DNA from: Chloroflexota bacterium
GTDB taxonomy: Bacteria > Chloroflexota > Dormibacteria > CF-121
Length of the DNA stretch: 64,000 nt
Assembly (NCBI GenBank): GCA_005889345.1
Contig: VBFR01000183.1
Span: 1,315 to 65,314, forward strand
Direction of reading: 5' to 3'
The position numbers were made by a program, and so were the translations under genes. The notes beneath the pieces are model-generated. The model saw only the letters and a list, made by a program, of their open reading frames with translations, was not told where the DNA came from and did not search any database. The number at the start of each line of letters is the position of its first letter. Position 1 is the stretch's first letter. Positions 745 to 57,192 of the stretch are shown piece after piece.

Positions 745-1010
745 TCGATCCCAAGCACCGCGTCACGATCGAATACTGCGTTCCCTGAAACTACCTCGAC
801 CAAGCCGTCGGTCTGGCGGCTGAGATCCTCGGGGCCTGGGCCCCGGTGATGATCGATGTGTCGCTGCGCACGGGGAGCAAGGGGCGCTTCGAGGTCACGC
901 TCGACGACCAGATGATCTTCAGCAAGGTCAAGTTGCATCGGTTTCCAAAGCGTGGTGAGATCCTCAAGCTCGCCGAGCCGGTGCTCGGACCGCCAATCGC
1001 CTGGCGCTAG
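741..1010 (+). CDS. SelW/Rdx-family selenoprotein (89 aa) with in-frame UGA (Sec) at 786-788 in a CxxU motif
   Basis: Translates as VIDPKHRVTIEYCVP-U-NYLDQAVGLAAEILGAW...GRFEVTLDDQMIFSKVKLHRFPKRGEILKL, which fits the Rdx fold signature (beta-strand, then CxxU, then a GxFEV...F.K.....P motif). GTG 741 is the first start after the in-frame stop at 726-728. It is missing from the ORF track because of the TGA. Confidence 0.65.
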
Positions 1011-1156
1011 CGCACAATTCACTCGTCCGCCGTCCACTCCCGTACCTGCTCGCGCTGCTGCTGGCGGCCGCGGCCTTCCAGTACTTCCGCCCGCTGCCGC
1101 TGACCGCGGCGACCGCGGTCGTCCCGGCAACGGAACGCCTCGGAAGCGCACCAGCA

Positions 1157-46799: not shown

Positions 46800-47387
46800 T
46801 TGGCGCCGCTCGGGCCGATCACGCTGACGGGGAGCCACATCCGATTGGAGCCGATGCGTCCTTCGCACGCGCCGGCCCTTCTCGAGGCCGGGCGCGATGA
46901 GGGCATCTGGACCTGGATGCCGGCCCGTCCGCTGACGGCGGAAACGATGGACCGTTGGCTCGAGAAGGCGATGCATGCCGAGTCCCAGGGTCGCGAGTAC
47001 CCCTTCGTTGTCGTCCGCCTCGTGGACAACCGGGTCATCGGCAGCACCCGGTACCTCGACGTCCAGGGGGACGATCGGACCGTCGAAATCGGCTGGACCT
47101 GGTATGCGCCGGATGCCTGGGGCGGCGTCGTCAATCCCGAGGCGAAGTACCTGCTCATGCGCCATGCCTTCGATGACTGGCACGCCATCCGGGTGGCGTT
47201 GAAGACCGATATCAACAACCTGCACTCCCAGGCGGCCATCAAGAAGCTTGGCGCCCGCTACGAGGGGACGCTTCGCAACCAGCGCATCCGTCCGGACGGG
47301 AGCTATCGCGATACGGTGATCTTCTCCGTGATCGAGAGTGAGTGGCCGGCGGTCAAGGCCGGGCTCGAAGAACGCTTGCGCGCCTAG
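46800..47387 (+). CDS. GNAT N-acetyltransferase (RimJ/RimL-like)
   Basis: IGWTWYAPDAWGGVVNPEAKYLLMRHAFDDWHAIRVALKTDINNLHSQAAIKKLG. Confidence 0.7.
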   Translation: MAPLGPITLTGSHIRLEPMRPSHAPALLEAGRDEGIWTWMPARPLTAETMDRWLEKAMHAESQGREYPFVVVRLVDNRVIGSTRYLDVQGDDRTVEIGWTWYAPDAWGGVVNPEAKYLLMRHAFDDWHAIRVALKTDINNLHSQAAIKKLGARYEGTLRNQRIRPDGSYRDTVIFSVIESEWPAVKAGLEERLRA

Positions 47388-47899
47388 CTCTTCCCGCCGT
47401 TAAGGACGCGAAGGCCTGCTGGATTCTCTTTAGCTGGCGAATTTTCGGCCGCCATCTCGAGTGGCAGGGTCATCGTGGACGCACTCGCTTTTTCCCTCCT
47501 CCGCTTGCCGGGCCCGTCGGCCCACGCGAGCGGCGCTCGGGGCGTCGCCCCACGCGAGTGGCGCTTGAGTGCCACACGAGCGTTTGAGACGTTAGTGCCA
47601 GGCGAGCGTTTGAGACGTTCGGGGAGGGTCAGGGAGGGGGTTGCCTCAGCGGGAAGGTTCGGGCTGGGCGCTTCCTTGCGCCGCGTCCGATAGCCGCTGG
47701 CGACCTTGGCCGTCGCCGCCTGGGCGGCTGCGATCACCTCGGAAGCAGACACGTCCGGGTTGGCGAGCGCCTCCAGATCGAATGGGACCATTTCGCTGAC
47801 GCAAATCTGGCGCTGCGGGTCGATGATCACGACCGCGACAAAGGGCTCTTGACTTGTGATGCTCGGATGGATCTGTGACCACGGAATGACATTGCCCAT
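47384..47899 (-). CDS. hypothetical ORF; only the first about 85 codons look credible, and the 3' part runs through a MITE-like repeat
   Basis: The N-terminus MGNVIPWSQIHPSITSQEPFVAVVIIDPQRQICVSEMVPFDLEAL is preceded by the conserved 23-nt palindromic motif. Residues beyond about 85 are encoded by the repeat at 47491-47640. Confidence 0.35.
   Translation of the reverse strand: MGNVIPWSQIHPSITSQEPFVAVVIIDPQRQICVSEMVPFDLEALANPDVSASEVIAAAQAATAKVASGYRTRRKEAPSPNLPAEATPSLTLPERLKRSPGTNVSNARVALKRHSRGATPRAPLAWADGPGKRRREKASASTMTLPLEMAAENSPAKENPAGLRVLNGGKS
47491..47640. repeat. MITE/REP-like palindromic element, copy B (with internal duplications)
   Basis: TTTCCCTCCTCCGCTTGCCGGGCCCGTCGGCCCACGCGAGCGGCGCT...GCGAGCGTTTGAGACGTT x2...CGGGGAGGGTCAGGGAGGGGG; homologous to 29857-29952. 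Confidence 0.7.
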
Positions 47900-47915
47900 G
47901 ACGGGAGCCTAACCC

Positions 47916-47938
47916 GCCGTTTTGACAGCTGTCTGTCG
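47916..47938 (-). promoter_or_regulatory. conserved 23-nt palindromic motif CGACAGACAGCTGTCAAAACGGC (core TGACAGCTGTCA), about 17 nt upstream of the 47899 ORF start
   Basis: Identical 23-mer, in the same orientation relative to its gene, at 55991-56013 upstream of rmuC. Confidence 0.5.
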
Positions 47939-47943
47939 CAGCG

Positions 47944-50900
47944 TCAGCCGCTCGGGACTTCCTCTTCGACCTCGTCGCGGCTGGACCCGTTGGCCTGCGC
48001 CTCCTCAGCGGAGGCAGGAACGAGCGAGGGGCCAGGCAACCGGATGATGGTCCAGTCGTCGGCCTTCTCGGCGCGGTCGGCGAGCGCCTCGTCCTTCGAG
48101 AACAAGATCACCTGGTGGTCGAGGCGGCCGAGTTCGTTCATCGCCGCGGTCAGACGGCGCCGGTCGGCGTGAACCAGCGCTTCGTCCAGCAGCAGAGGCG
48201 GTGGCTCCGCGTTTCCGCCGATAATGCGCGCCAGCGCCAGCCGCTCGAGCAGGTAGATCAGGGAGCGCGTGCCCAGGCTGAGGTTGTCGACATCCTTATA
48301 AGTCCGCTGGTCCTGCGTGCGGACCTGCAACGCGAGGTCTTCGCCGATGCGCACATCGCGATAGCGGCCGTTCGTGATGGGGGAGAGCTGACCCTGGAGT
48401 TGCGACTTCAGCCTGGGGATCACGGCCCGCCGCACCGATTTCGCCGCGGCTTCGAGCGTTTCGATGGCGAGGTCGTAGGCGTGGGCCTCGGCCTCGAGCT
48501 CCTGCAGCTGTTCGCGGGCGGTTGCGATCTCCTCCTCGAGGGTGGCCACGTCCCCGATCTGGGTCAGCCGATCGTTCAGTAACTCCTCCGCCCGCGCCCG
48601 TTCCTCCTGGGCGCGCTCCTTCGTACCGCGGTGCTGGTCGCGCTGCCGTTCGAGCTCGGCGAGTGGCAACGCCGCGAATTGCGCCACCGCGGCAGGGTCC
48701 ACGCTCCGGCTGGTCTCCTCGAGCTGGCGCGTCAGGTCGTCGACGAGCTGTCGCAGCGACGCCCCTTCGTCGTTGGCAGCGGTCCCCCGTTGCGCTTCCA
48801 GCTCGGCGAGGCGAGCGCTCGATGCGCGGTAGGCCTCGGCATGACCGACGCCGGCCTCCCAGGCCTGGGATGCGCGCTCCATGTCGGTGTCGTCGATGCC
48901 GGCCGGCGTGTAGATGGCCGCGAGCTGACGAGCGTAGTCATCGGCTTTGGTGCGCTCGGCGACCGAGCGCTGTCCCGGCGCCCGGAGTTGCTCCAATTGC
49001 GCGTCGAGCTGCTCGATCCGGGTGCGGACCTGCTGGGCGGTGCGCGCGGCCTCGCAACTCGCGATGAAGTCGCGGGCGGCACCGAGCGCCTCCCGCCGGT
49101 CGAAGCCCAGCTGGTCGAGCAGGCTGTGCAGCCGCTGCCGAAGCGACTCGCGTCGCTGGTCCAGCTCGGATTCGGCACGGGACGCATCCTGTGACCGCTC
49201 GCTGGCGGCGTTCCAGGCGAGCGTGTCCTGGGCGAGCGACTCGATCTCACGCGCCGTCTCGTCGACGGCCTCTTCGGTGGGCGCGGGCTGCGGAAGTCCC
49301 CACGACCCGACCAGCTCGCGAAGGCTGCGACCCGCAATCTGGGCCCGCTCCTCCAGCTCGGTAGCCTGGCGGTCGAGTTCGAGACGGGTGGCGTCGTAGC
49401 GCACCTTCTGCAGGTGCTCGACCAGGGCCTGCTGGAGTTCCGCTGAGCTTCGCACCCCCCACGGCTGCAGGATCTCGCGCCGTTTGATGCGAGCCTCGTC
49501 TTTCGCCCGCAAGCGGCGGTCGACCTCACGAACCGCGGCCCCACGGACCCAGATGCCGATGCCCGTCGAGAGGACCCCCATGCCGAGCAGGAAGAACGCG
49601 GCGCCGGCCAGCAGAATCGTGCCGTTGCTCTGGAGCGCGAGGAAGGCGACCAGGATCGCGAGTGCTGTCAGCAGAAGGCCGCCCAGCATCGCGCCGAGGA
49701 AGGTGCGCTGCCGGCTGCGAGCCCGCTCCGCCATCGCTTCCTCGCGTCGCATCGCCTCCTCGGCTTGCTGGCCGGTCTTGATGACGTCGGGGACTTCCTT
49801 GTAGCGGGCGATGTCGTGCTTGAGCTGCTCGAGGCGTGGTGGGAGCTCGGCGCCGGCGCGGCGGCGTGCCTCGAGGGCGACGTTGTGGCGCTCCCGCCAT
49901 TCGGAGAAGACGCGCTGGAACTCCATCTGGCGCGCGGGCCAGTCCAGGTTGTTGCCGATCAGGCCCGGGTGCCGCTCCGCGATCCGGCGAGCCTCCTCCG
50001 CCGCGGTCTGGGCGCGGAGGTGGACGTCGGGCGCCTGGGTATCGGCGACATTCAGGGTGGAGAGAAGCTCACGAACCGTGGGTTCCTGGGCGAGGGCGGC
50101 GTCGTCGATGCCACGGGCTCGCGTTTCGTGCCCCTGTGCCTCCGTTTCCAGCTTCTGGCGCTCGGCGTCCAGCTGCTGCACCTGGGCCGTGCTGTCGGTG
50201 GCGCGACGTTCGAAGTCGGCCTGGGTCTCGCGAGTAGCCCGCAGGTGGCTCCGCAGGTCCTGAACCTCTGCCTGGCGGTCGAGCGGGAACATCGCGAATC
50301 GGGTGTGCTGCTCCTGCCGGCCGCGTTCCTCCGCGATCGCCTGCTCCAATGCGTCGACCCGCTCCAGCCGGTGACGCGCATCCTGCAGCCGGGATGCCAG
50401 CAGGGCGGCCTCGAGCGTTTGGACGATGCCCAGCTCGGCTTCGGTGAGCGCCGAAACGGTCTCCCGCTTCTGGGCGAGCTCATCGACCGCGGCGCGAGCC
50501 TGCCGCGCGGCGGCGAGCTGTCGCTCCAGCTCTGTCAGGCGAGCCTCGAGATCGTGCAACGGGCCGGTCCGCCCGCGTGGTTTGCCGATTCGATGGGTCC
50601 GTTCCTGGCGCAACCGGTCGAGAACCTTCTGCGCGGTACGGTCGGGATGCGCCGAATCCGCAAGGGCGATGATCGCCTCCTTGATGGTGCCGGCGTCTTC
50701 CAGGCGCAGCACCTCGCTGCGCGAAATGCACGCGGTGTTGGTATAGATATCGCGGCTGACGCCGAGCAGCTGCCGTCCCACCTGCAATCCGCCCGACGCA
50801 TCGTGGTCGAAGCGGTCGCCGAGCTCGGCACCGGTGCTGATGTCGAAGACGCGAACCGTCTCGGCGTCCAGATCGCGCTCCACGCGGAGCTGCGTCCCGT

Positions 50901-51153
50901 CCTCGAGCACGACGTCGAGGACCAGCCCGAAGTTGCCGCCCTGCCACGGGCGCCAGCGGTCGGCGCGCTCCACCAGCGCCGAATGGGCGCGATCGGCGGA
51001 CTGCAGTCCATAGAGGCCGGTCACGATGGCCTCCTGCAGCGTCGACTTGCCGGCCTCATTGGGTCCGACGACGAGGTTCATCGTCGGCCCGAAGTGCAGC
51101 TCCATGCCGGAAAGCGTGCCGAAGCCCTCGATCTCGATCCGGGTTAAGCGCAC
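47944..51153 (-). CDS. SbcC/Rad50-like AAA ATPase with central transmembrane helices (YhaN/COG4717-like)
   Basis: N-terminal Walker A VVGPNEAGKST, long coiled coils, two or three TM helices (LLLTALAILVAFLAL; LLGMGVLSTGIGIWV), and a C-terminal signature/Walker B region (LLLDEALVHAD). Confidence 0.8.
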   Translation of the reverse strand: MRLTRIEIEGFGTLSGMELHFGPTMNLVVGPNEAGKSTLQEAIVTGLYGLQSADRAHSALVERADRWRPWQGGNFGLVLDVVLEDGTQLRVERDLDAETVRVFDISTGAELGDRFDHDASGGLQVGRQLLGVSRDIYTNTACISRSEVLRLEDAGTIKEAIIALADSAHPDRTAQKVLDRLRQERTHRIGKPRGRTGPLHDLEARLTELERQLAAARQARAAVDELAQKRETVSALTEAELGIVQTLEAALLASRLQDARHRLERVDALEQAIAEERGRQEQHTRFAMFPLDRQAEVQDLRSHLRATRETQADFERRATDSTAQVQQLDAERQKLETEAQGHETRARGIDDAALAQEPTVRELLSTLNVADTQAPDVHLRAQTAAEEARRIAERHPGLIGNNLDWPARQMEFQRVFSEWRERHNVALEARRRAGAELPPRLEQLKHDIARYKEVPDVIKTGQQAEEAMRREEAMAERARSRQRTFLGAMLGGLLLTALAILVAFLALQSNGTILLAGAAFFLLGMGVLSTGIGIWVRGAAVREVDRRLRAKDEARIKRREILQPWGVRSSAELQQALVEHLQKVRYDATRLELDRQATELEERAQIAGRSLRELVGSWGLPQPAPTEEAVDETAREIESLAQDTLAWNAASERSQDASRAESELDQRRESLRQRLHSLLDQLGFDRREALGAARDFIASCEAARTAQQVRTRIEQLDAQLEQLRAPGQRSVAERTKADDYARQLAAIYTPAGIDDTDMERASQAWEAGVGHAEAYRASSARLAELEAQRGTAANDEGASLRQLVDDLTRQLEETSRSVDPAAVAQFAALPLAELERQRDQHRGTKERAQEERARAEELLNDRLTQIGDVATLEEEIATAREQLQELEAEAHAYDLAIETLEAAAKSVRRAVIPRLKSQLQGQLSPITNGRYRDVRIGEDLALQVRTQDQRTYKDVDNLSLGTRSLIYLLERLALARIIGGNAEPPPLLLDEALVHADRRRLTAAMNELGRLDHQVILFSKDEALADRAEKADDWTIIRLPGPSLVPASAEEAQANGSSRDEVEEEVPSG

Positions 51154-51183
51154 GCTGGCCTCACCACGGCCGCCAGGCTGGCG

Positions 51184-52278
51184 TCATTCCTCGAAGGCAT
51201 CGAGGGCGAGCTGCAACGCGCGGCCGACCGCCTGCTCCTCCTGGCGCGACCCCTGCTTGTGGTCAACCAGCTTGCGCACCATTTCGCCCCGACTGGTGAA
51301 CTCCTGCGCGGCGGCCTCGAGGTCGTGCGACACGCGCGACTGGTCGCGAAACTCGAGATAGGCGAAGCCATCACTGCACTCCCGCGAGAGCACCTGCGGA
51401 TCCAGGATCAGCGAATGGGCGCGCTCGCCGGTCAGCGTGGCACGGATGACGGCGCCATCGAGGTGTTTCTCCTCGCGCATCGCTTCGACCGCGTCGCGAA
51501 CGTGATCGATGCTCGTCATGCCGCTGACGTCGATCGTTTCCTGGGCGAACTGCCGCTGGTTGATGTCTTCCAGCAACACCTGGAGGCCGCCATCGTCGCC
51601 GATCGTCAGCAGCGCCGTGCAATGACGTCCGGATTCATTCCACCCGAGCGGCTCCGGGCTGCCGGGATAGGTGATCGACTCCGACCTCCGGGCGTCGTGA
51701 TAGTGGCCGAGCAGCGCGTGACGGAAGCCGGCCTCCTGGACCTGGGCGGGCAGGATGGGCTTGTAGGGGGTCACGTCCTGCGGGACCTGGCTCATGTCCG
51801 AGGCATGGAGCAGGAGGAGGTGCGTGCCGTCCTCGCGCCGGGCGAAATCACGCAGCGGCGCCTCCGGCACGTCCGATCGCATGAAACCCGCGGTCCAGAT
51901 CTCGACGTTCGCATAGCGGTAGGGTCGCAGATCCTCGTGCGTCGCGACCGTGACATTGTCAGGCCAGCGCAGGTATCGGTATGGTGAGCTCGGCACGGCC
52001 GGATCGGCGTGGCCGGGGGCGATCAGGACCGGGAGCCCGGCGTCGCCCAGGGTCTGGACGATGAAGCTTGCAGTGTCGCGCGTGACGTGATCGTGCTCAA
52101 AGAGATCGCCACCGCAGGTGAGCACGTCGGCCTGAGCCTCCCGAGCGCGTTCGACGATCCGTTGAAGGGCCGCCCGAAGATCCTCGCGGCGTCGTTGGGC
52201 GCCGACGCCATAGAGGCGCTCACTCGCGAAGGATCGATCGAGATGCAGGTCAGCGAAATGGAGCAGGCGAAGGGCCAC
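51184..52278 (-). CDS. SbcD/Mre11-like metallophosphoesterase (YhaO-like DNA repair exonuclease)
   Basis: LHFADLHLD...GGDLFEH...calcineurin-like phosphoesterase motifs; sits immediately upstream of the ATPase gene. Confidence 0.8.
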   Translation of the reverse strand: MALRLLHFADLHLDRSFASERLYGVGAQRRREDLRAALQRIVERAREAQADVLTCGGDLFEHDHVTRDTASFIVQTLGDAGLPVLIAPGHADPAVPSSPYRYLRWPDNVTVATHEDLRPYRYANVEIWTAGFMRSDVPEAPLRDFARREDGTHLLLLHASDMSQVPQDVTPYKPILPAQVQEAGFRHALLGHYHDARRSESITYPGSPEPLGWNESGRHCTALLTIGDDGGLQVLLEDINQRQFAQETIDVSGMTSIDHVRDAVEAMREEKHLDGAVIRATLTGERAHSLILDPQVLSRECSDGFAYLEFRDQSRVSHDLEAAAQEFTSRGEMVRKLVDHKQGSRQEEQAVGRALQLALDAFEE

Positions 52279-52416
52279 AAATCCCCCGTAACCACGCGAA
52301 TTGTGCCTGGCGCGATGGCATAAGCAGCGCGAAAGCAGCGCCCATTATAAAGGTTGCGCTGAATTTGTTCCGAATCAGCCGGCGCCGCGATAACAGCATC
52401 TAGACTGAGGGACGAA

Positions 52417-53379
52417 GTGGGCTCGTTCGAGAAGGGGGATCGCGGGGCCCGGATCCTCAAGATCCAGACGCTGCTCCAGGGCAATCCCCACGGTTTGACG
52501 ACCGGCGAGATCGCGCGCCGCAGCGGCGTGAATCCGCGCACCACCTATCGCGACATTCGGGCGCTCGAAGCGATGAACGTGCCGGTCTACGAGGACAACG
52601 GCCGGATCGCGATCGACCCGAACTACTTCGTAGCGCCGGTCAAGTTCACCTTGCGCGAGGCGATGGCGCTCCTCATGGGCGTTCGCCTGATGCACCGGCA
52701 TCGCGACCAGGCGGATCCGGACGTCGCCGACGCCTTCACCAAGCTGGCGGCGGTCCTGCCCGCGCCGGTCGCGGAGTACGTGCACGCCACGGTTCGTCAG
52801 ATGGCCGATCGTCCGTCCAACCCGACGTACTCGCGCGTCCTCCAGACGGTCGCGCTCAGCTGGGCGGGGCACAGGGCGGTGCGCATCTGGTACCCGAGCG
52901 CGAACCACGAGGTGAAGCCGCGCGAGATCGAACCGTATTTTCTCGAGCCCTCGCTGATCGGGCACAGCAGCTACGTGGTGGCGCGCGATCGCGGACTGCG
53001 GGAGATGCGGACCTTCAAGCTGGAACGGATCACGCGGGCCGAGCCAATGTCCGAGACCTATCAGATCCCGCCTGAGTTCGAGGTCAACAAGTACCTGGCC
53101 GGAGCCTGGGGCATCTACCACTCCGGCGAGCCGGTAGAGGTCAGACTGCGCTTCTATCCACCGGCGGCGGCTCGCGTGAAGGAATCGATCTGGCATCCAT
53201 CGCAGAAGCTCAGCGATGGGCCGAGGGGCTCGGTCAACATGACGGTGACGGTAACCGGGACGCTCGAGATCACCCCGTGGATCCTGGGGTGGGGCGACGC
53301 CGTCGAAGTGCTGGCGCCCGCGGACCTGCGCAAGAAGATCAACGAGGTGGGCACGAAAATGGCCTCCCGCAACAAGTAA
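52417..53379 (+). CDS. HTH-WYL-domain transcriptional regulator (PafBC/YafY-like)
   Basis: N-terminal HTH ILKIQTLLQGNPHGLTTGEIARRSGVNPRTTYRDIRAL, and a WYL region AVRIWYPSANHEVKPREIEPYFL. Confidence 0.8.
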   Translation: MGSFEKGDRGARILKIQTLLQGNPHGLTTGEIARRSGVNPRTTYRDIRALEAMNVPVYEDNGRIAIDPNYFVAPVKFTLREAMALLMGVRLMHRHRDQADPDVADAFTKLAAVLPAPVAEYVHATVRQMADRPSNPTYSRVLQTVALSWAGHRAVRIWYPSANHEVKPREIEPYFLEPSLIGHSSYVVARDRGLREMRTFKLERITRAEPMSETYQIPPEFEVNKYLAGAWGIYHSGEPVEVRLRFYPPAAARVKESIWHPSQKLSDGPRGSVNMTVTVTGTLEITPWILGWGDAVEVLAPADLRKKINEVGTKMASRNK

Positions 53380-53383
53380 TTCG

Positions 53384-53420
53384 TTCCCTCCCCCGCTTGC
53401 GGGGGAGGGTAGGGTGGGGG
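53384..53420. repeat. solo palindromic element (TTCCCTCCCCCGC-TT-GCGGGGGAGGG + TAGGGTGGGGG), corresponding to the joined ends of the MITE-like repeat; possible terminator
   Basis: Perfect 11-bp inverted repeat. It matches the 5' and 3' termini of copies A and B. Confidence 0.6.
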
Positions 53421-53440
53421 CATAAAACAGGAGGGACGAA

Positions 53441-53806
53441 ATGAGCGTTTATCAGGTAGTCGCGAAATTGAAGCCCACGAAGATCTGGGAGGGGGTGCTC
53501 GGCCGCGTGGTCAACGGAGAACGGCTCACGATCGGGTTCGTCGACATCGACCCCAACGCGCAGGTTCCGGAACACCGGCACGAGAACGAGCAGGTCGGAT
53601 TCGTCCTCCGCGGTTCGGTGACCATGGTGGTCGACGGTAACGCGCGCGAGCTACGGGTGGGGGAGACCTATACGATCGCCAGCCAGCTTCCCCATTCGGC
53701 GAAGGCTGGGGGGGACGGCGTGTCAGTTGTTGACGTCTTCGCGCCGGTTCGCCAGGACTGGAAGGACAAGCCGACCGTCGAGCCGTTTCCCGGACGCTGG
53801 CCCTGA
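53441..53806 (+). CDS. cupin domain protein
   Basis: AGGAGG RBS; PEHRHENEQVGFVLRGSV...GETYTIASQLPHS cupin motifs. Confidence 0.7.
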   Translation: MSVYQVVAKLKPTKIWEGVLGRVVNGERLTIGFVDIDPNAQVPEHRHENEQVGFVLRGSVTMVVDGNARELRVGETYTIASQLPHSAKAGGDGVSVVDVFAPVRQDWKDKPTVEPFPGRWP

Positions 53807-53807
53807 G

Positions 53808-54599
53808 TTAGAACAGGCCCCGATACTCTCCGCCGTCGACCGCCAGCGTCGTTCCGGTGATGAAGCTGGCCGCGTCGCCAGCCAGGAAGACGACCGCGGC
53901 CGCCAGCTCGTCAGGCCGTCCATGGCGGCCCAGCGGGATGTTGCGGATGCTGCGCGCCGTGTACTCCCCGGGGTCGACGCCGAGCGTGATCGCCTGGTGG
54001 CGGTTCTCCTCCCGGATGCGGTCGGTCTCGAAGCGGCCGGTGAGGATGGAGTTCACCCGAACCTCGGGGGCGGCCTCCTTCGCCAGGGTCTTTCCCATGG
54101 CAACCACGGCCGGCCGCAGCGCGTTCGAGAGCACGAGGTTGTCGACCGGCTGATGCGCCGCGATCGAGGTGAGATTGACGACGGCGCCTCCATCACGCCG
54201 CAGCGCCGGCAGGGAGGCGCGCGTCAGGCGAACGGCGCTCATGAACACCAGGTTGAAGGCCTCCGCCCACGCCTGGTCGTCGAGTTCCGCCACGGTCCCG
54301 AGGATGGGCCCGCGCGTGTTGTTGACGAGCACCTCGAGGCCGCCGAGCGTTTCGACCGCCCATTCGACGAGGTCGCTGCACTGGTCGGGTTGGCGGACAT
54401 CGGCGACCCGCGCGACGACGTCATAGCCCTCGTCGCGCAGCGTCTTCGCTGCGGCTCGGATGCGCTGCTCATCGCTCGAGGAAATGGCCACGCGACAGCC
54501 CTCCGCGGCGAGCGCCCGCGCCGAAGCGAACCCGAGGCCCCGACTGGCCGCGGTCACCAGCGCGCGTCGTCCGCGAAGTCCGGTTTCCACCGGGGACAT
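53808..54599 (-). CDS. SDR family oxidoreductase
   Basis: TGxxxGxG in ALVTAASRGLGFA, and the catalytic YxxxK region. The start is set at the internal Met MSPVETG. Confidence 0.8.
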   Translation of the reverse strand: MSPVETGLRGRRALVTAASRGLGFASARALAAEGCRVAISSSDEQRIRAAAKTLRDEGYDVVARVADVRQPDQCSDLVEWAVETLGGLEVLVNNTRGPILGTVAELDDQAWAEAFNLVFMSAVRLTRASLPALRRDGGAVVNLTSIAAHQPVDNLVLSNALRPAVVAMGKTLAKEAAPEVRVNSILTGRFETDRIREENRHQAITLGVDPGEYTARSIRNIPLGRHGRPDELAAAVVFLAGDAASFITGTTLAVDGGEYRGLF

Positions 54600-54624
54600 A
54601 CTAGGAGCGGCGCGATGCCCTAGG

Positions 54625-54834
54625 CTAGGCGGCGAGACGCGGTTGCTTGCCGCAGGCGGGGCACGGCGTTCCCGCCTTGAGTTCGGCCCGCTTGAAGGCG
54701 TGTCCGCCGCAATGCGGGCAGAGCGCGCCGGGACGGAGGGGAGCGGCTTGCTCCGCCTTCTGCATGCGCTCACGGAGATGACTGTCGTCTTCTTTCTCGA
54801 TGAAGCGCGGATCGGTAGGCGTCTGGGTGCTCAT
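54625..54834 (-). CDS. small zinc-ribbon protein (69 aa)
   Basis: CPHCGG...CPACGK. Its start overlaps the upstream gene's stop by 4 nt. Confidence 0.5.
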   Translation of the reverse strand: MSTQTPTDPRFIEKEDDSHLRERMQKAEQAAPLRPGALCPHCGGHAFKRAELKAGTPCPACGKQPRLAA

Positions 54835-55679
54835 GCGGCCTTCAGCTCGTGTGGCTGGAACTGCTCCGGCCGCAGCCGGTCGCCGATGGCACGGCCGATG
54901 ACTTCCGGATGGAGCTCGACGCCGCGCTGGAAGGGGTGGACGCTCAGGATCGCGGGCACGGTTCGGTCGCCCAGCTTCACGTCGAGCACCCGGCCGTGCA
55001 AGGTGGTCATCCGACCCCAGCCATCCCAGGTTTGAATCGTCCGCCACCAGAGATGGCGGGCGACCGGACCGCCCATGGCGACGACCAGCTGCGGGTTGAT
55101 GCTCGCGAGCAGGCTCTGCAGGTGGCGGTCGACACACTGGTTGACGGCGTCATCGATAACCAGGTCCGGGTTTGCCGTGGGGCAACGGACGGCCCAGGTA
55201 TGGAAGGCGAGGTCCATGACGTCGTGCTTCTCCGGTTTCTGCCCGAGCCGGCGGCGCGCGTTGAGCAGCACCGCCCGTACGAATTGGTAGTAAGGCTGCG
55301 GCGTGTCCGATGTCATGTGGTGCTCGAGTCCGGATTCGTGATCGAGCCACTCGCTGAAGGCCTCGTTGCTGGCGCTGGCGGCATCCAATGGGCTGGGGCT
55401 GATGAACACGATGGGCGCCTGCGGGTTCCCGAACCCGATCTCCGGCCGGCGCAGCGGCTCAGCCAGTCCAGCGCAGGGGCTGTCGGCGCCCCGGTCCGCC
55501 TCGGCGATTGCGCAGCCGTGCAGCCGCTTGAGCGCGTCCGAGCCGAAGAACTGCAGGTACTGCTGGCCCTTGCTCACGCTGTGAAAACGACGCGCGGTGG
55601 CCGGTGAAGCTTGCGCCCCGGCGGCTAAGATTTCTCGGTGGCCCAGGTTCCCGGGATCGACGTCAGCCAGCTCCGGCAA
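54831..55679 (-). CDS. uracil-DNA glycosylase superfamily protein
   Basis: IGFGNPQAPIVFISPSP motif A-like and a C-terminal HPF motif (SVHPFQRG). The start is probably internal, because the ORF overlaps the rhodanese gene on the other strand. Confidence 0.55.
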   Translation of the reverse strand: MPELADVDPGNLGHREILAAGAQASPATARRFHSVSKGQQYLQFFGSDALKRLHGCAIAEADRGADSPCAGLAEPLRRPEIGFGNPQAPIVFISPSPLDAASASNEAFSEWLDHESGLEHHMTSDTPQPYYQFVRAVLLNARRRLGQKPEKHDVMDLAFHTWAVRCPTANPDLVIDDAVNQCVDRHLQSLLASINPQLVVAMGGPVARHLWWRTIQTWDGWGRMTTLHGRVLDVKLGDRTVPAILSVHPFQRGVELHPEVIGRAIGDRLRPEQFQPHELKAA

Positions 55680-55958
55680 CGACTCAAGGCCGAGCCGGCG
55701 CCCTTCTTACTGGACGTCCGCGAGCCGTGGGAATATCAGGAGGCTCACGTGCCGGGCGCGCAATTGATCCCGCTCGGGGAGCTGGAGCAACGCGTGAACG
55801 AAGTGCCACGGGATCGCCCGATCCTGGCCATTTGCCATAGCGGCCAGCGGAGCCTCGCCGCGGCCGGCTACCTCCAGCAACTCGGCTACACCTCGGTCAG
55901 CAACGTCGACGGCGGCACTGCCGCCTGGATCGAACGAGGCTTCCCCGTAGACAAATAG
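55638..55958 (+). CDS. rhodanese-domain sulfurtransferase
   Basis: Active-site Cys loop ICHSGQRS. Confidence 0.75.
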   Translation: MAQVPGIDVSQLRQRLKAEPAPFLLDVREPWEYQEAHVPGAQLIPLGELEQRVNEVPRDRPILAICHSGQRSLAAAGYLQQLGYTSVSNVDGGTAAWIERGFPVDK

Positions 55959-55990
55959 CCTTCCCAGCTTGCCGGGGAGGGCAGGGGCTC

Positions 55991-56013
55991 CGACAGACAG
56001 CTGTCAAAACGGC
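55991..56013 (+). promoter_or_regulatory. conserved 23-nt palindromic motif CGACAGACAGCTGTCAAAACGGC upstream of rmuC
   Basis: Exact copy of the motif at 47916-47938; lies 75 nt upstream of the rmuC GTG. Confidence 0.5.
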
Positions 56014-56088
56014 CTGCTTGACTTTGGGAGTGAGCCAAACCACCATTGACACGACCAACCGTCCTTTTCACGTCCTGAAGGAGTCCAA

Positions 56089-57192
56089 GTGAGCGTCCTC
56101 GAACTGGTCCTCGCGGTGCTACTGGTCGCCACCCTGATCTGCCTTGTCGGCCTGCTCCTCCGGCGGCCGGCCGCGACCGCTCCCTCTGACGCGGTGCTGG
56201 CGGCGCTCACCGATCTGGGCGCCCTCAGGTCACACGTCGAAACCGTCAGCAATCAGCAGAGTGCACTGAGTCAGTCGCTCAGCATGGTGCAGACGGCGGT
56301 TCAGGGCGTTGAGACCAAAGTGCTCGAAAGCTCGGCGGGCGTCCGCGATGCGATCGGGAAAGACCTGTCCGACGCACGCGTCGCCATGGAACGTTTGAAG
56401 GCCGACGCTGAAGAGCGCCGCCGCATGGAAGAGGACGTGCAGGCCTCAGCGCGCCGGATCGAGACCGTCCTGCTCGGCAGCCGCACACGTGGTGCGGCCG
56501 GCGAGAACATCCTTCAGGACGCGTTCCGCCAGTTTCCCGCTGAGATGATCGACATGAACTTCCGGGTCAACGGCAAGGTCGTTGAGTACGCGCTGGTCCT
56601 GGCCAACGGCAAACGGCTGCCGATCGATAGCAAGTGGCCATCCCCGGAATTGCTCGACCGGCTCAGCGACGGCTTGCAGGAGCCGGGCAAAGAGACGACG
56701 CTCGTCCAGGAGATCGAGCGAGTCCTGCGGCTGAAGGTGCGGGAGGTCAAGCAGTACATCGATCCGGCGGCGACGCTCGGCTTCGCCGTGGCCGCCGTTC
56801 CCGACCCGGTCTTCAACGCCTGCCGTCGCGCCCACCTCGAGGCCTATCGCGAAGGGGTGATCCTGATGCCCTACAGCATGACCATCCCCTACGTGCTGGC
56901 CCTCTTTCGCCTGCACCTGCAGTACGCGAAGTCCATCGACATCGAAAACCTCGAGGGCTACTTGCAGCAAATCGACGATAACGTCGCCGCGCTCGATCGC
57001 CTGCTCGAGAACAGCATTGCGCGTGGCAGCACCATGATCCAGAACGCCTTCACCGACGCTAAGCGCAACCTGGGACAGATGCGGGGTGCGCTGGCCGCCA
57101 TGCGCGCGGTGCCGCAGGCGGCCTTGGGCCAGGAGCCGGACATCGACCAGGTCGACGAGCCCGACCTCCAGTTGCTGATCTCCCGCCGCTAA
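56089..57192 (+). CDS. rmuC: DNA recombination protein RmuC
   Basis: AAGGAG RBS; N-terminal TM helix, coiled coil, and an RmuC C-terminal nuclease-like domain (LVLANGKRLPIDSKWP). Confidence 0.8.
   Translation: MSVLELVLAVLLVATLICLVGLLLRRPAATAPSDAVLAALTDLGALRSHVETVSNQQSALSQSLSMVQTAVQGVETKVLESSAGVRDAIGKDLSDARVAMERLKADAEERRRMEEDVQASARRIETVLLGSRTRGAAGENILQDAFRQFPAEMIDMNFRVNGKVVEYALVLANGKRLPIDSKWPSPELLDRLSDGLQEPGKETTLVQEIERVLRLKVREVKQYIDPAATLGFAVAAVPDPVFNACRRAHLEAYREGVILMPYSMTIPYVLALFRLHLQYAKSIDIENLEGYLQQIDDNVAALDRLLENSIARGSTMIQNAFTDAKRNLGQMRGALAAMRAVPQAALGQEPDIDQVDEPDLQLLISRR

Follow-up and report, generated by a model that had tools for sequence, protein, structure and literature searches.

A 23-nucleotide sequence that occurs twice in the 64-kb stretch of DNA analysed here (contig VBFR01000183.1; hereafter the window, with a G+C content of ~66%) appears to be the core of a promoter-embedded box for a WYL-domain activator. 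This activator would control a small set of genes in uncultured soil Dormibacterota, would act upon DNA damage in a manner resembling DriD or PafBC, and would be the protein encoded at 52417 of the window. We give this reading as a whole a probability of about 0.6. The two copies precede rmuC and a gene for a 171-amino-acid protein of a family that we name after its N-terminal residues MGNVIPW, and had been described in an earlier note on this DNA as a candidate shared operator.

The 23-mer CGACAGACAGCTGTCAAAACGGC has exactly two occurrences in the window, at 47916–47938 on the minus strand and at 55991–56013 on the plus strand. The copies are in opposite orientation, and each reads toward its own downstream gene, so that a search of the window confirmed both the coordinates and the common orientation toward downstream genes given previously. 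Permitting up to three mismatches still yields two matches where 0.01 would be expected, and two matches were obtained in 0 of 100 dinucleotide-preserving shuffles; the earlier claim that this recurrence exceeds chance is upheld. The likeness between the copies stretches to 34 nucleotides at 88%. Copy 1 resides in the 44-nucleotide gap between the stop codon of an SbcC-like gene (47944–51153, minus strand) and the ATG of the 171-amino-acid open reading frame (ORF; 47384–47899, minus strand), and ends 16 nucleotides before this ATG at 47899. Copy 2 is located 3' of a GC-rich hairpin, which itself trails a rhodanese gene, and ends 75 nucleotides before the GTG start codon of rmuC at 56089. No further copies, near-copies or degenerate copies were found elsewhere in the 64-kb window. 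One candidate for an additional copy, CTGTGAAAAC at 55579, was rejected because it lies within a gene resembling uracil-DNA glycosylase (UDG) and lacks promoter geometry.

To establish how far the element extends, we relied on 82 unique orthologous upstream regions of the MGNVIPW-family gene and 34 of rmuC, taken from soil metagenomes and metagenome-assembled genomes (MAGs). In these regions, a 21-nucleotide box, GCGACAGACAGCTGTCAAAAC, is near-invariant, whereas the sequence 5' of it shows no conservation. Profiles aligned by coding start, and hence blind to the motif, reveal at least 93% conservation at box positions 2–20, followed by seven variable positions and then by a conserved hexamer. 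All 82 of the unique family-gene upstream regions carry the box at up to four mismatches. A family-based scan of metagenome contigs produced 80 loci, of which 78 include sufficient upstream sequence, and in 78 of 78 the family gene is preceded by tGCGACAGACAGCTGTCAAAAC-N7-TAGGCT-N6/7-ATG with unrelated sequence 5' of the box between loci. When 711 kb of loci were searched at up to four mismatches, the box was found 85 times before the family gene and 17 times before rmuC, with one additional doubtful match. In the window, the box occupies 47919–47939 on the minus strand for copy 1 (arms CGACAG at 47933–47938 and CTGTCA at 47923–47928) and 55990–56010 on the plus strand for copy 2, where its sequence is CCGACAGACAGCTGTCAAAAC and where it is kept in 33 of the 34 unique rmuC upstream regions.

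A 12-bp palindrome had been proposed as the core of the 23-mer. A dyad is indeed present; its perfect part is 10 bp long (GACAGCTGTC), and the 12-bp version carries one mismatch, in line with the earlier note. Four more divergent loci, whose regulator is 71–76% identical, retain both the synteny and the box (as GTGACAGACACCTGTCAAAAG, GCGACAGGCAGCTGTCAATCG, CCGACAGACAGCTGTCGCAAC and GCGACAGACAGCTGTCGCGGG). In these loci the A-run and the inner 10-bp palindrome are not kept, whereas GAC (positions 3–5), GTC (positions 14–16) and the outer GACAG-N4-CTGTC are. The inner 10/12-bp palindrome was therefore rejected as the recognition unit, since it is broken in divergent genomes (GACACCTGTC and GGCAGCTGTC) with the outer arms intact. 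Because divergent genomes break the inner palindrome and keep GAC...GTC, sequence comparison identifies the symmetric unit as CGACAG-N4-CTGTC(A/G), which preserves the earlier idea of a palindromic site but moves it from the inner TGACAGCTGTCA to the outer pair of arms. The consensus of the 21-bp box is (G/C)CGACAGACAGCTGTCAAAAC, with arms CGACAG and CTGTC(A/G) that are separated by 4 bp and positioned at approximately −39 to −34 and −29 to −24. The distance from GAC to GTC is 11 bp, and the upstream arm CGACAG is as strongly conserved as TGTC.

The position of the box relative to the downstream gene is fixed. In 124 unique sites, the hexamer starts exactly 8 nucleotides past the box (7 nucleotides between), and the start codon follows 6–9 nucleotides past the hexamer, which is the geometry of a leaderless mRNA. 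For example, copy 1 is followed after 7 nucleotides by TAGGCT (47906–47911, minus strand), which lies 6 nucleotides ahead of the ATG at 47899. The T and A of the hexamer are 100% conserved in the family-gene profile, and TAnnnT is present at this offset in 75 of 75 unique sites before family, yajQ and Zn-ribbon genes. The DUF222-HNH genes are preceded by CAnnnT, and 31 of 31 rmuC sites carry TTGACT with a TG ahead of it (T26 100%, G27 97%). The leaderless geometry sets the box at approximately −40 to −20 relative to the ATG or transcription start site and places TGTC at −28 to −25. No recognisable −35 hexamer was seen in the box promoters, and a generic scan for sigma-70 promoters and terminators called neither window promoter, as is expected for promoters without a −35 element. 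Judged from these sequences, the box looks like an activator site that substitutes for the −35 element and whose spacing to the −10 element never changes, rather than like a repressor operator. Thus, of the shared operator proposed in the earlier note, the shared cis-regulatory site is retained, being conserved and of fixed geometry, whereas a repressor-type operator fits less well than an activator box that replaces the −35 element. We consider it almost certain that the box is a functional cis-regulatory promoter element, and quite probable that its effect is activation rather than repression.

The rmuC site departs somewhat from this pattern. The target gene (56089–57192, plus strand) encodes an RmuC-family protein (Pfam PF02646, E 1.5e-11), and the distance of 75 nucleotides that had been noted is right. 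However, the box is not simply upstream of rmuC, as an apparent leaderless ORF of 20 codons (VSQTTIDTTNRPFHVLKESK; 56030–56092, plus strand) lies between them. This probable leader ORF starts 6 nucleotides past TTGACT, and its TGA stop codon overlaps the rmuC start codon (GTGA). TTGACT itself is part of TGcTTGACT (56015–56023, plus strand), in which it occupies the offset of the −10 element of the other targets with the TG ahead, as in extended −10 elements. The RTG start, length and frame of the leader ORF are kept in 33 of 34 unique loci. Its variation by codon position is 3.23/3.23/2.92, and the absence of a third-position excess indicates that the sequence of the leader peptide is not visibly under selection. 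A conserved peptide was accordingly rejected, and only the start, length and frame are supported. Within the leader ORF, CACCAT (56041–56046) is invariant even at synonymous positions. TTGACT could instead be a −35 element with CACCAT, 17–18 bp downstream, as its −10 element, and the two promoters may coexist.

We scanned one genome per species (185,579 species) for exact matches to the 18-mer GACAGACAGCTGTCAAAA. This search yielded 76 stretches. A set of 33 Candidatus Dormiibacterota-type MAGs accounts for 68 of them, at up to five per genome, and the remaining eight are scattered over unrelated phyla and lack the hexamer, with ~17 matches expected by chance. Among the 68 sites in the related genomes, 65 are in the fixed promoter geometry before a start codon, two are intergenic and face a convergent gene, one is truncated where its contig ends, and no site was observed within a gene. 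A repeat fragment, which the earlier note expected to be found inside coding regions with no promoter bias, fails as an explanation on these counts. Homologues of the window proteins were found in soil metagenome contigs only, and the few named ones belong to Candidatus Dormibacteraeota/Dormiibacterota MAGs or to 'Chloroflexi bacterium CF_xx', which places the source organism among the uncultured Dormiibacterota (AD3) or their close neighbours.

At least seven gene classes follow the box. The MGNVIPW-family gene is downstream of 24 sites and rmuC of 21, with one additional rmuC site in which a TnpB-like gene is inserted between the box and rmuC. The remaining sites precede yajQ/DUF520 (nine sites; Pfam E 1e-59), a DUF222 plus HNH endonuclease gene (six sites), a gene for a 75-amino-acid Cys-rich Zn-ribbon protein (three sites) and a RecB-like nuclease candidate (one site), which was named from a reading of its sequence and has no Pfam match. 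Two sites face the 3' end of a convergent operon for an anti-sigma factor and an extracytoplasmic function (ECF) sigma factor, and one is the site cut by a contig end. The DUF222 plus HNH genes belong to one family with the mycobacterial REP13E12 proteins, and some members of the latter can be induced by DNA damage.

The candidate regulator (52417–53379, plus strand) carries a winged helix-turn-helix (wHTH; HTH_11), a WYL and a WCX domain, all three above the Pfam cut-offs, and the topology of its AlphaFold2 (AF2) model agrees with this arrangement. Its best solved relatives by sequence are DriD (E 7e-16), PafC (2e-10) and PafB (2e-5), and the best in a Foldseek search with its predicted fold are DriD (5e-16), PafBC (2e-12) and BrxR/CapW (1e-8). 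In the recognition helix RTTYRD, R41 and R45 align with R37 and R41 of DriD. Residues of DriD that contact single-stranded DNA (ssDNA) map onto the 52417 protein as Y168 to Y159, R178 to R169, Y192 to Y186, R204 to R198, W206 to F200, R207 to K201 and Y240-H241 to Y-H; a second listing gives K/F/K for R176/W206/R207. The recognition helix and residues Y159, R169, Y186, R198, F200 and K201 are invariant in 25 homologues (68–91% identity). This conservation suggests that the WYL domain might bind ssDNA as a switch. Every syntenic locus that extends far enough contains the WYL gene, with 79–96% identity, which is above that of its sbcD neighbour. The earlier suggestion of this protein as the candidate binder is strengthened by its likeness to DriD in sequence, fold and Arg pair, which makes it the best candidate, and we judge it the probable binder of the box.

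DriD from Caulobacter crescentus is a homodimeric activator (wHTH, 3HB, WYL and WCX) of an SOS-independent DNA damage response (PMC10853764, PMC13004042). In promoters that lack a −35 element, its site ATACGACAGTTACTGTCGTAT, or CGACAG-N3-CTGTCG, extends over the −35 position and keeps a constant spacing to the −10 element (PMC10853764, PMC13004042). Residues R37 and R41, which are essential for binding, form bidentate contacts with the half-site CGxC, at its G and at the G that pairs with its C, the site centre is not contacted and preferably AT-rich, and 68 of 69 DriD homologues have the box in their own promoter (PMC10853764). The box described here shares with DriD the half-site CGACAG/CTGTCG, a site length of ~21 bp, the overlap with the −35 position at a fixed −10 spacing in promoters that have no −35 element, and a small regulon that includes nucleases. 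The 52417 protein, in turn, has DriD as its best solved relative by sequence and fold, and conserves the base-reading Arg pair and most ssDNA-contact residues. In contrast to the DriD site, CGxC-N7-GxCG, the box reads CGAC-N8-GTC(A/G), and is thus 1 bp longer with a weaker right end that is mostly GTCA. Furthermore, the predicted transcripts here are leaderless, the organisms are Dormiibacterota rather than Alphaproteobacteria (~23% identity), and no didA, bapE or recA was seen among the targets.

PafBC promoters have the form tGTCgg(N10)tA(N3)T with the 5' part at −23 to −28 and no −35 element, and PafB reads the GTC triplet with its R46/R50 pair (PMC8635444). The window sequence TGTCAA-N10-TAGGCT fits exactly both this spacing and that of the older RecA-NDp consensus, tTGTCRgtg-8nt-TAnnnT, with TGTC at the position given above. 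The absence of a −35 element, the leaderless geometry, the WYL-WCX class of the regulator and a GTC triplet of the kind read by PafB's Arg pair are also common to both systems. However, PafBC is a heterodimer or fusion of two paralogues from the pup-proteasome locus, usually next to pafA, and its motif is non-palindromic, is bound via PafB only and requires RNA polymerase for binding, whereas a single WYL gene by sbcCD and a dyad-symmetric box with a conserved upstream arm are found here. With its single gene, its palindromic site and a locus other than that of the proteasome, the system is not a member of PafBC. SiwR from Mycobacterium smegmatis, another homodimeric WYL activator, binds a 19-bp imperfect palindrome between the −35 and −10 elements (PMC10693628). 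Its palindrome likewise spans the −26 region, and SiwR is responsive to genotoxic stress, but it controls only an adjacent dinB-like operon and has GGA at −26, whereas the present box has several unlinked targets and another sequence.

These comparisons suggest by analogy that the element works like a WYL-activator box with the arms and dyad of DriD and the register of PafBC. The N7 spacing and the autoregulatory box, both specific to DriD, are lacking, and we file the system under homodimeric WYL activators with a promoter-embedded box. In such a system, a homodimer of the 52417 protein would set one recognition helix on each of the GAC and GTC triplets, 11 bp apart, and read them through R-x-x-x-R as in DriD and PafB. 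Binding of the box, or activation, would be licensed by ssDNA that arises from DNA damage and is bound by the WYL domains. The bound dimer would then recruit or adapt the housekeeping RNA polymerase holoenzyme, and transcription would begin at the start codon to give leaderless mRNAs. In the window, the MGNVIPW-family gene (47899) and the transcript of the leader ORF and rmuC (56030) would be switched on, and other targets in the same genomes would include yajQ, the DUF222-HNH nucleases, the Zn-ribbon protein and the RecB-like nuclease. By analogy with known WYL activators, the signal may well be DNA damage or ssDNA.

Several observations weigh against this interpretation. The recA, lexA and uvr promoters are not represented among the 68 exact-match sites (degenerate sites were not scanned genome-wide), and as a result a role in DNA damage rests on analogy and on a target list that is partly repair-like. 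The N4 spacer of the box differs from the N3 spacer of DriD (GAC to GTC 11 bp versus 10 bp), and its centre is strongly conserved and GC-rich where that of DriD is AT-rich. A comparison of 33 unique sbcD-WYL intergenic regions showed no conserved box in the promoter of the regulator itself. Helices 79–92, 101–111 and 116–129 of the 52417 protein, between the wHTH and WYL domains, where a three-helix bundle sets DriD-type proteins apart from PafB, are predicted with a pLDDT (AF2's per-residue confidence score) below 50. The linkage between the WYL gene and its proposed targets is inseparable from general synteny in a narrow clade, and the other targets are unlinked. The search for a pafB/pafC pair or a WYL paralogue, which found neither, covered the window and ~1.2 Mb of related loci. 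Finally, the rmuC hexamer TTGACT lacks the −11 A, and TTGACT/CACCAT as ordinary −35 and −10 elements could put the box upstream of a complete promoter.

A dimeric repressor that sits over the −35 region and blocks RNA polymerase until a signal arrives would also be compatible with a dyad that overlaps a promoter. This repressor could be a phylum-specific LexA, a WYL protein of the CapW/BrxR type or the 52417 protein itself. LexA sites are likewise palindromes before repair-type genes, and the Gram-positive SOS box CGAAC-N4-GTTCG has the same arrangement of 5-bp arms about a 4-bp spacer. In addition, GACA in the box, at approximately −34 to −31, is a partial match to a −35 element. However, the box sequence matches no LexA motif known to us, its position is fixed relative to the −10 element, and neither lexA nor recA follows any of the 68 exact sites, in agreement with the earlier statement that it does not match known LexA boxes. 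Repressors of the WYL class with ssDNA as their signal do exist (PMC11662680), but DriD and PafBC, which are activators, are closer to the regulator than BrxR and CapW are. Moreover, an invariant distance to the −10 element over at least seven unrelated promoters is typical of activators that touch RNA polymerase, whereas operator positions usually vary, and the box promoters have no recognisable −35 element. We therefore regard a repressor operator as unlikely.

The exact agreement of the TGTC-to-(−10) spacing with both PafBC/RecA-NDp consensuses, together with the leaderless promoters that lack a −35 element as in Actinobacteria, would also be explained if an unlinked PafBC-type heterodimer acted by sigma adaptation, with the TGTC half (the −26 element) as its sole contact and the local WYL gene unrelated. 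This seems quite improbable, because CGACAG is conserved like TGTC and the PafBC motif has neither a palindrome nor an upstream consensus, because the loci surveyed hold no second WYL gene or pafB/pafC pair, and because the local protein has a DriD-type HTH_11 helix with R-x-x-x-R. A further possibility is that the box is not bound by a transcription factor but forms the upstream part of promoters read by an alternative sigma factor, such as an ECF sigma. The length and conservation of the element and its fixed spacing to the hexamer would agree with this, and an ECF sigma operon adjoins one class of sites (L160). Nevertheless, the hexamer is the housekeeping TAnnnT, sigma region 4 does not read DNA as a 21-bp dyad-symmetric element, and the half-sites match those of WYL wHTH proteins, making this explanation very improbable. 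Chance recurrence, or a fragment of a dispersed repeat or mobile element, could be entertained when only two identical copies had been seen, and mobile-type DUF222-HNH genes follow one class of sites while a TnpB-like gene lies past the box in one genome (L133). We count this explanation as refuted, given the shuffling result, the unrelated flanks, and the presence of the box before the same orthologous genes in every genome in a single orientation and a single geometry.

The first gene past box copy 1 encodes the 171-amino-acid protein MGNVIPWSQIHPS... (47384–47899, minus strand). Its family comprises 338 hypothetical proteins, with a near-invariant N-terminus (MGNVIPWSQIHPSITS..., a domain of ~75 amino acids), a variable disordered middle and the conserved C-terminus GLRVLNGGK. 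Searches with this protein gave no Pfam, NCBIfam or PADLOC match. Its AF2 model, of moderate confidence only, is a small domain with a beta-hairpin and a helix, for which Foldseek found nothing in the PDB with E <0.5. The first 75 residues are almost invariant in loci where SbcC is only 73–85% identical (L011–L090), and the first ~8 codons of the gene barely vary, synonymous sites included. The variable middle contains a tandem 26-nucleotide direct repeat (47568–47619, 92% identical), and this region (LKRSPGTNVSNARVALKRHSRG...) is found in some family members only.

Some sites in other genomes exhibit additional features. In the six DUF222-HNH sites (L109, L119, L137, L149, L129 and L116), TT or TC replaces GC at box positions 1–2, creating TTGACA. 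In the CAZRMD MAG (L133, 1303–2592, minus strand), an ORF resembling TnpB/IS605 OrfB (VAGPRIVYRAYKYRMYPTRQQ...) lies between the box and rmuC, in place of the hexamer and leader. In L091 (~950–1095, minus strand) and L160 (534–700), the box with GAGAAT or CAGAAT points into the 3' end of the convergent gene of the anti-sigma-like/ECF-sigma operon. Past these two boxes there is a hairpin with compensatory changes (CGGCGGGCATGG...CCATGCTCGCCG versus CGGCGGTGGTGG...CCACTGCCGCCG), which may belong to an antisense or small RNA or be the terminator of the convergent gene. No Rfam family matched downstream of these two sites.

The sbcCD-like pair and the UDG-like gene had been viewed as part of the same picture. 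No box was found at either, and they are better described as neighbours than as demonstrated members of the regulon. The operon of sbcD-like (51184–52278) and sbcC-like (47944–51153) genes spans 47944–52278 on the minus strand, divergent from the WYL gene. In its own promoter region (52279–52416, minus strand), a perfect TATAAT is accompanied by a leader of ~65 nucleotides that is strongly conserved and may form a hairpin, GCGCTGCTTTCGCGCTCGC. A TAGACT hexamer lies 10–12 nucleotides before the start of the WYL gene, and many database homologues of this gene are annotated as 20–30 amino acids longer than the conserved MGSFEKGD start supports. PADLOC matches to 'Cas3c' and the JGI names 'Cas3' and 'proteasome accessory factor B' for this protein were set aside as reflecting a WYL module common to these proteins; the neighbourhood of the WYL gene holds no genes for CRISPR, defence or the proteasome. 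The UDG-like gene (54831–55679, minus strand), which has a weak match to the UDG superfamily, overlaps the start region of the rhodanese gene. The latter also lacks the box and has its own TAAGAT hexamer 5–6 nucleotides before a GTG, again of the leaderless type. Two GC-rich hairpins, CCTCCCCCGCTTGCGGGGGAGGG (53387–53414) and CCTTCCCAGCTTGCCGGGGAGGG (55959–55986), are located directly 3' of the stop codons of the WYL and rhodanese genes. They are alike and terminator-like but lack a T-run, and the second is just upstream of box copy 2.

In the library searched, no paper links Dormibacter* with WYL or contains the motif, except for a preprint on CRISPR knock-in that is unrelated. Systems of this kind are known; what is new is the phylum, the box variant, the regulon and a flagship protein of an uncharacterised family. 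A bolder version, in which the box marks the core of a DNA-damage regulon of Dormiibacterota that is independent of SOS and has not been described before, with promoters intermediate between those of DriD and PafBC and with the MGNVIPW...GLRVLNGGK protein as a new checkpoint or repair effector in the role of DidA or SulA, is in our view doubtful. WYL activators (PafBC, DriD, SiwR and an Acinetobacter regulator) are emerging as a second general DNA-damage switch, and the studied cases come from cultured Actinobacteria and Proteobacteria. For a phylum without cultured members, the present findings define a complete box by its sequence, together with the grammar of its promoters and a list of its targets, ready to be tested in a heterologous setting with a 21-bp oligonucleotide and one protein of 320 amino acids. 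They also flag a very strongly conserved MGNVIPW-family protein as the top target and add the leaderless leader-ORF arrangement ahead of rmuC. Even if the box were a repressor operator instead, a new regulon would still be defined. The reach of these findings is moderate, in that they offer a clean, testable regulon and a comparative point on DriD and PafBC rather than a new principle. The combination of DriD-like half-sites with PafBC-like spacing bears on the relation between the two modes of activation, and the bolder version, if true, would suggest that one ancient WYL-activator promoter architecture is common to Proteobacteria and Terrabacteria.

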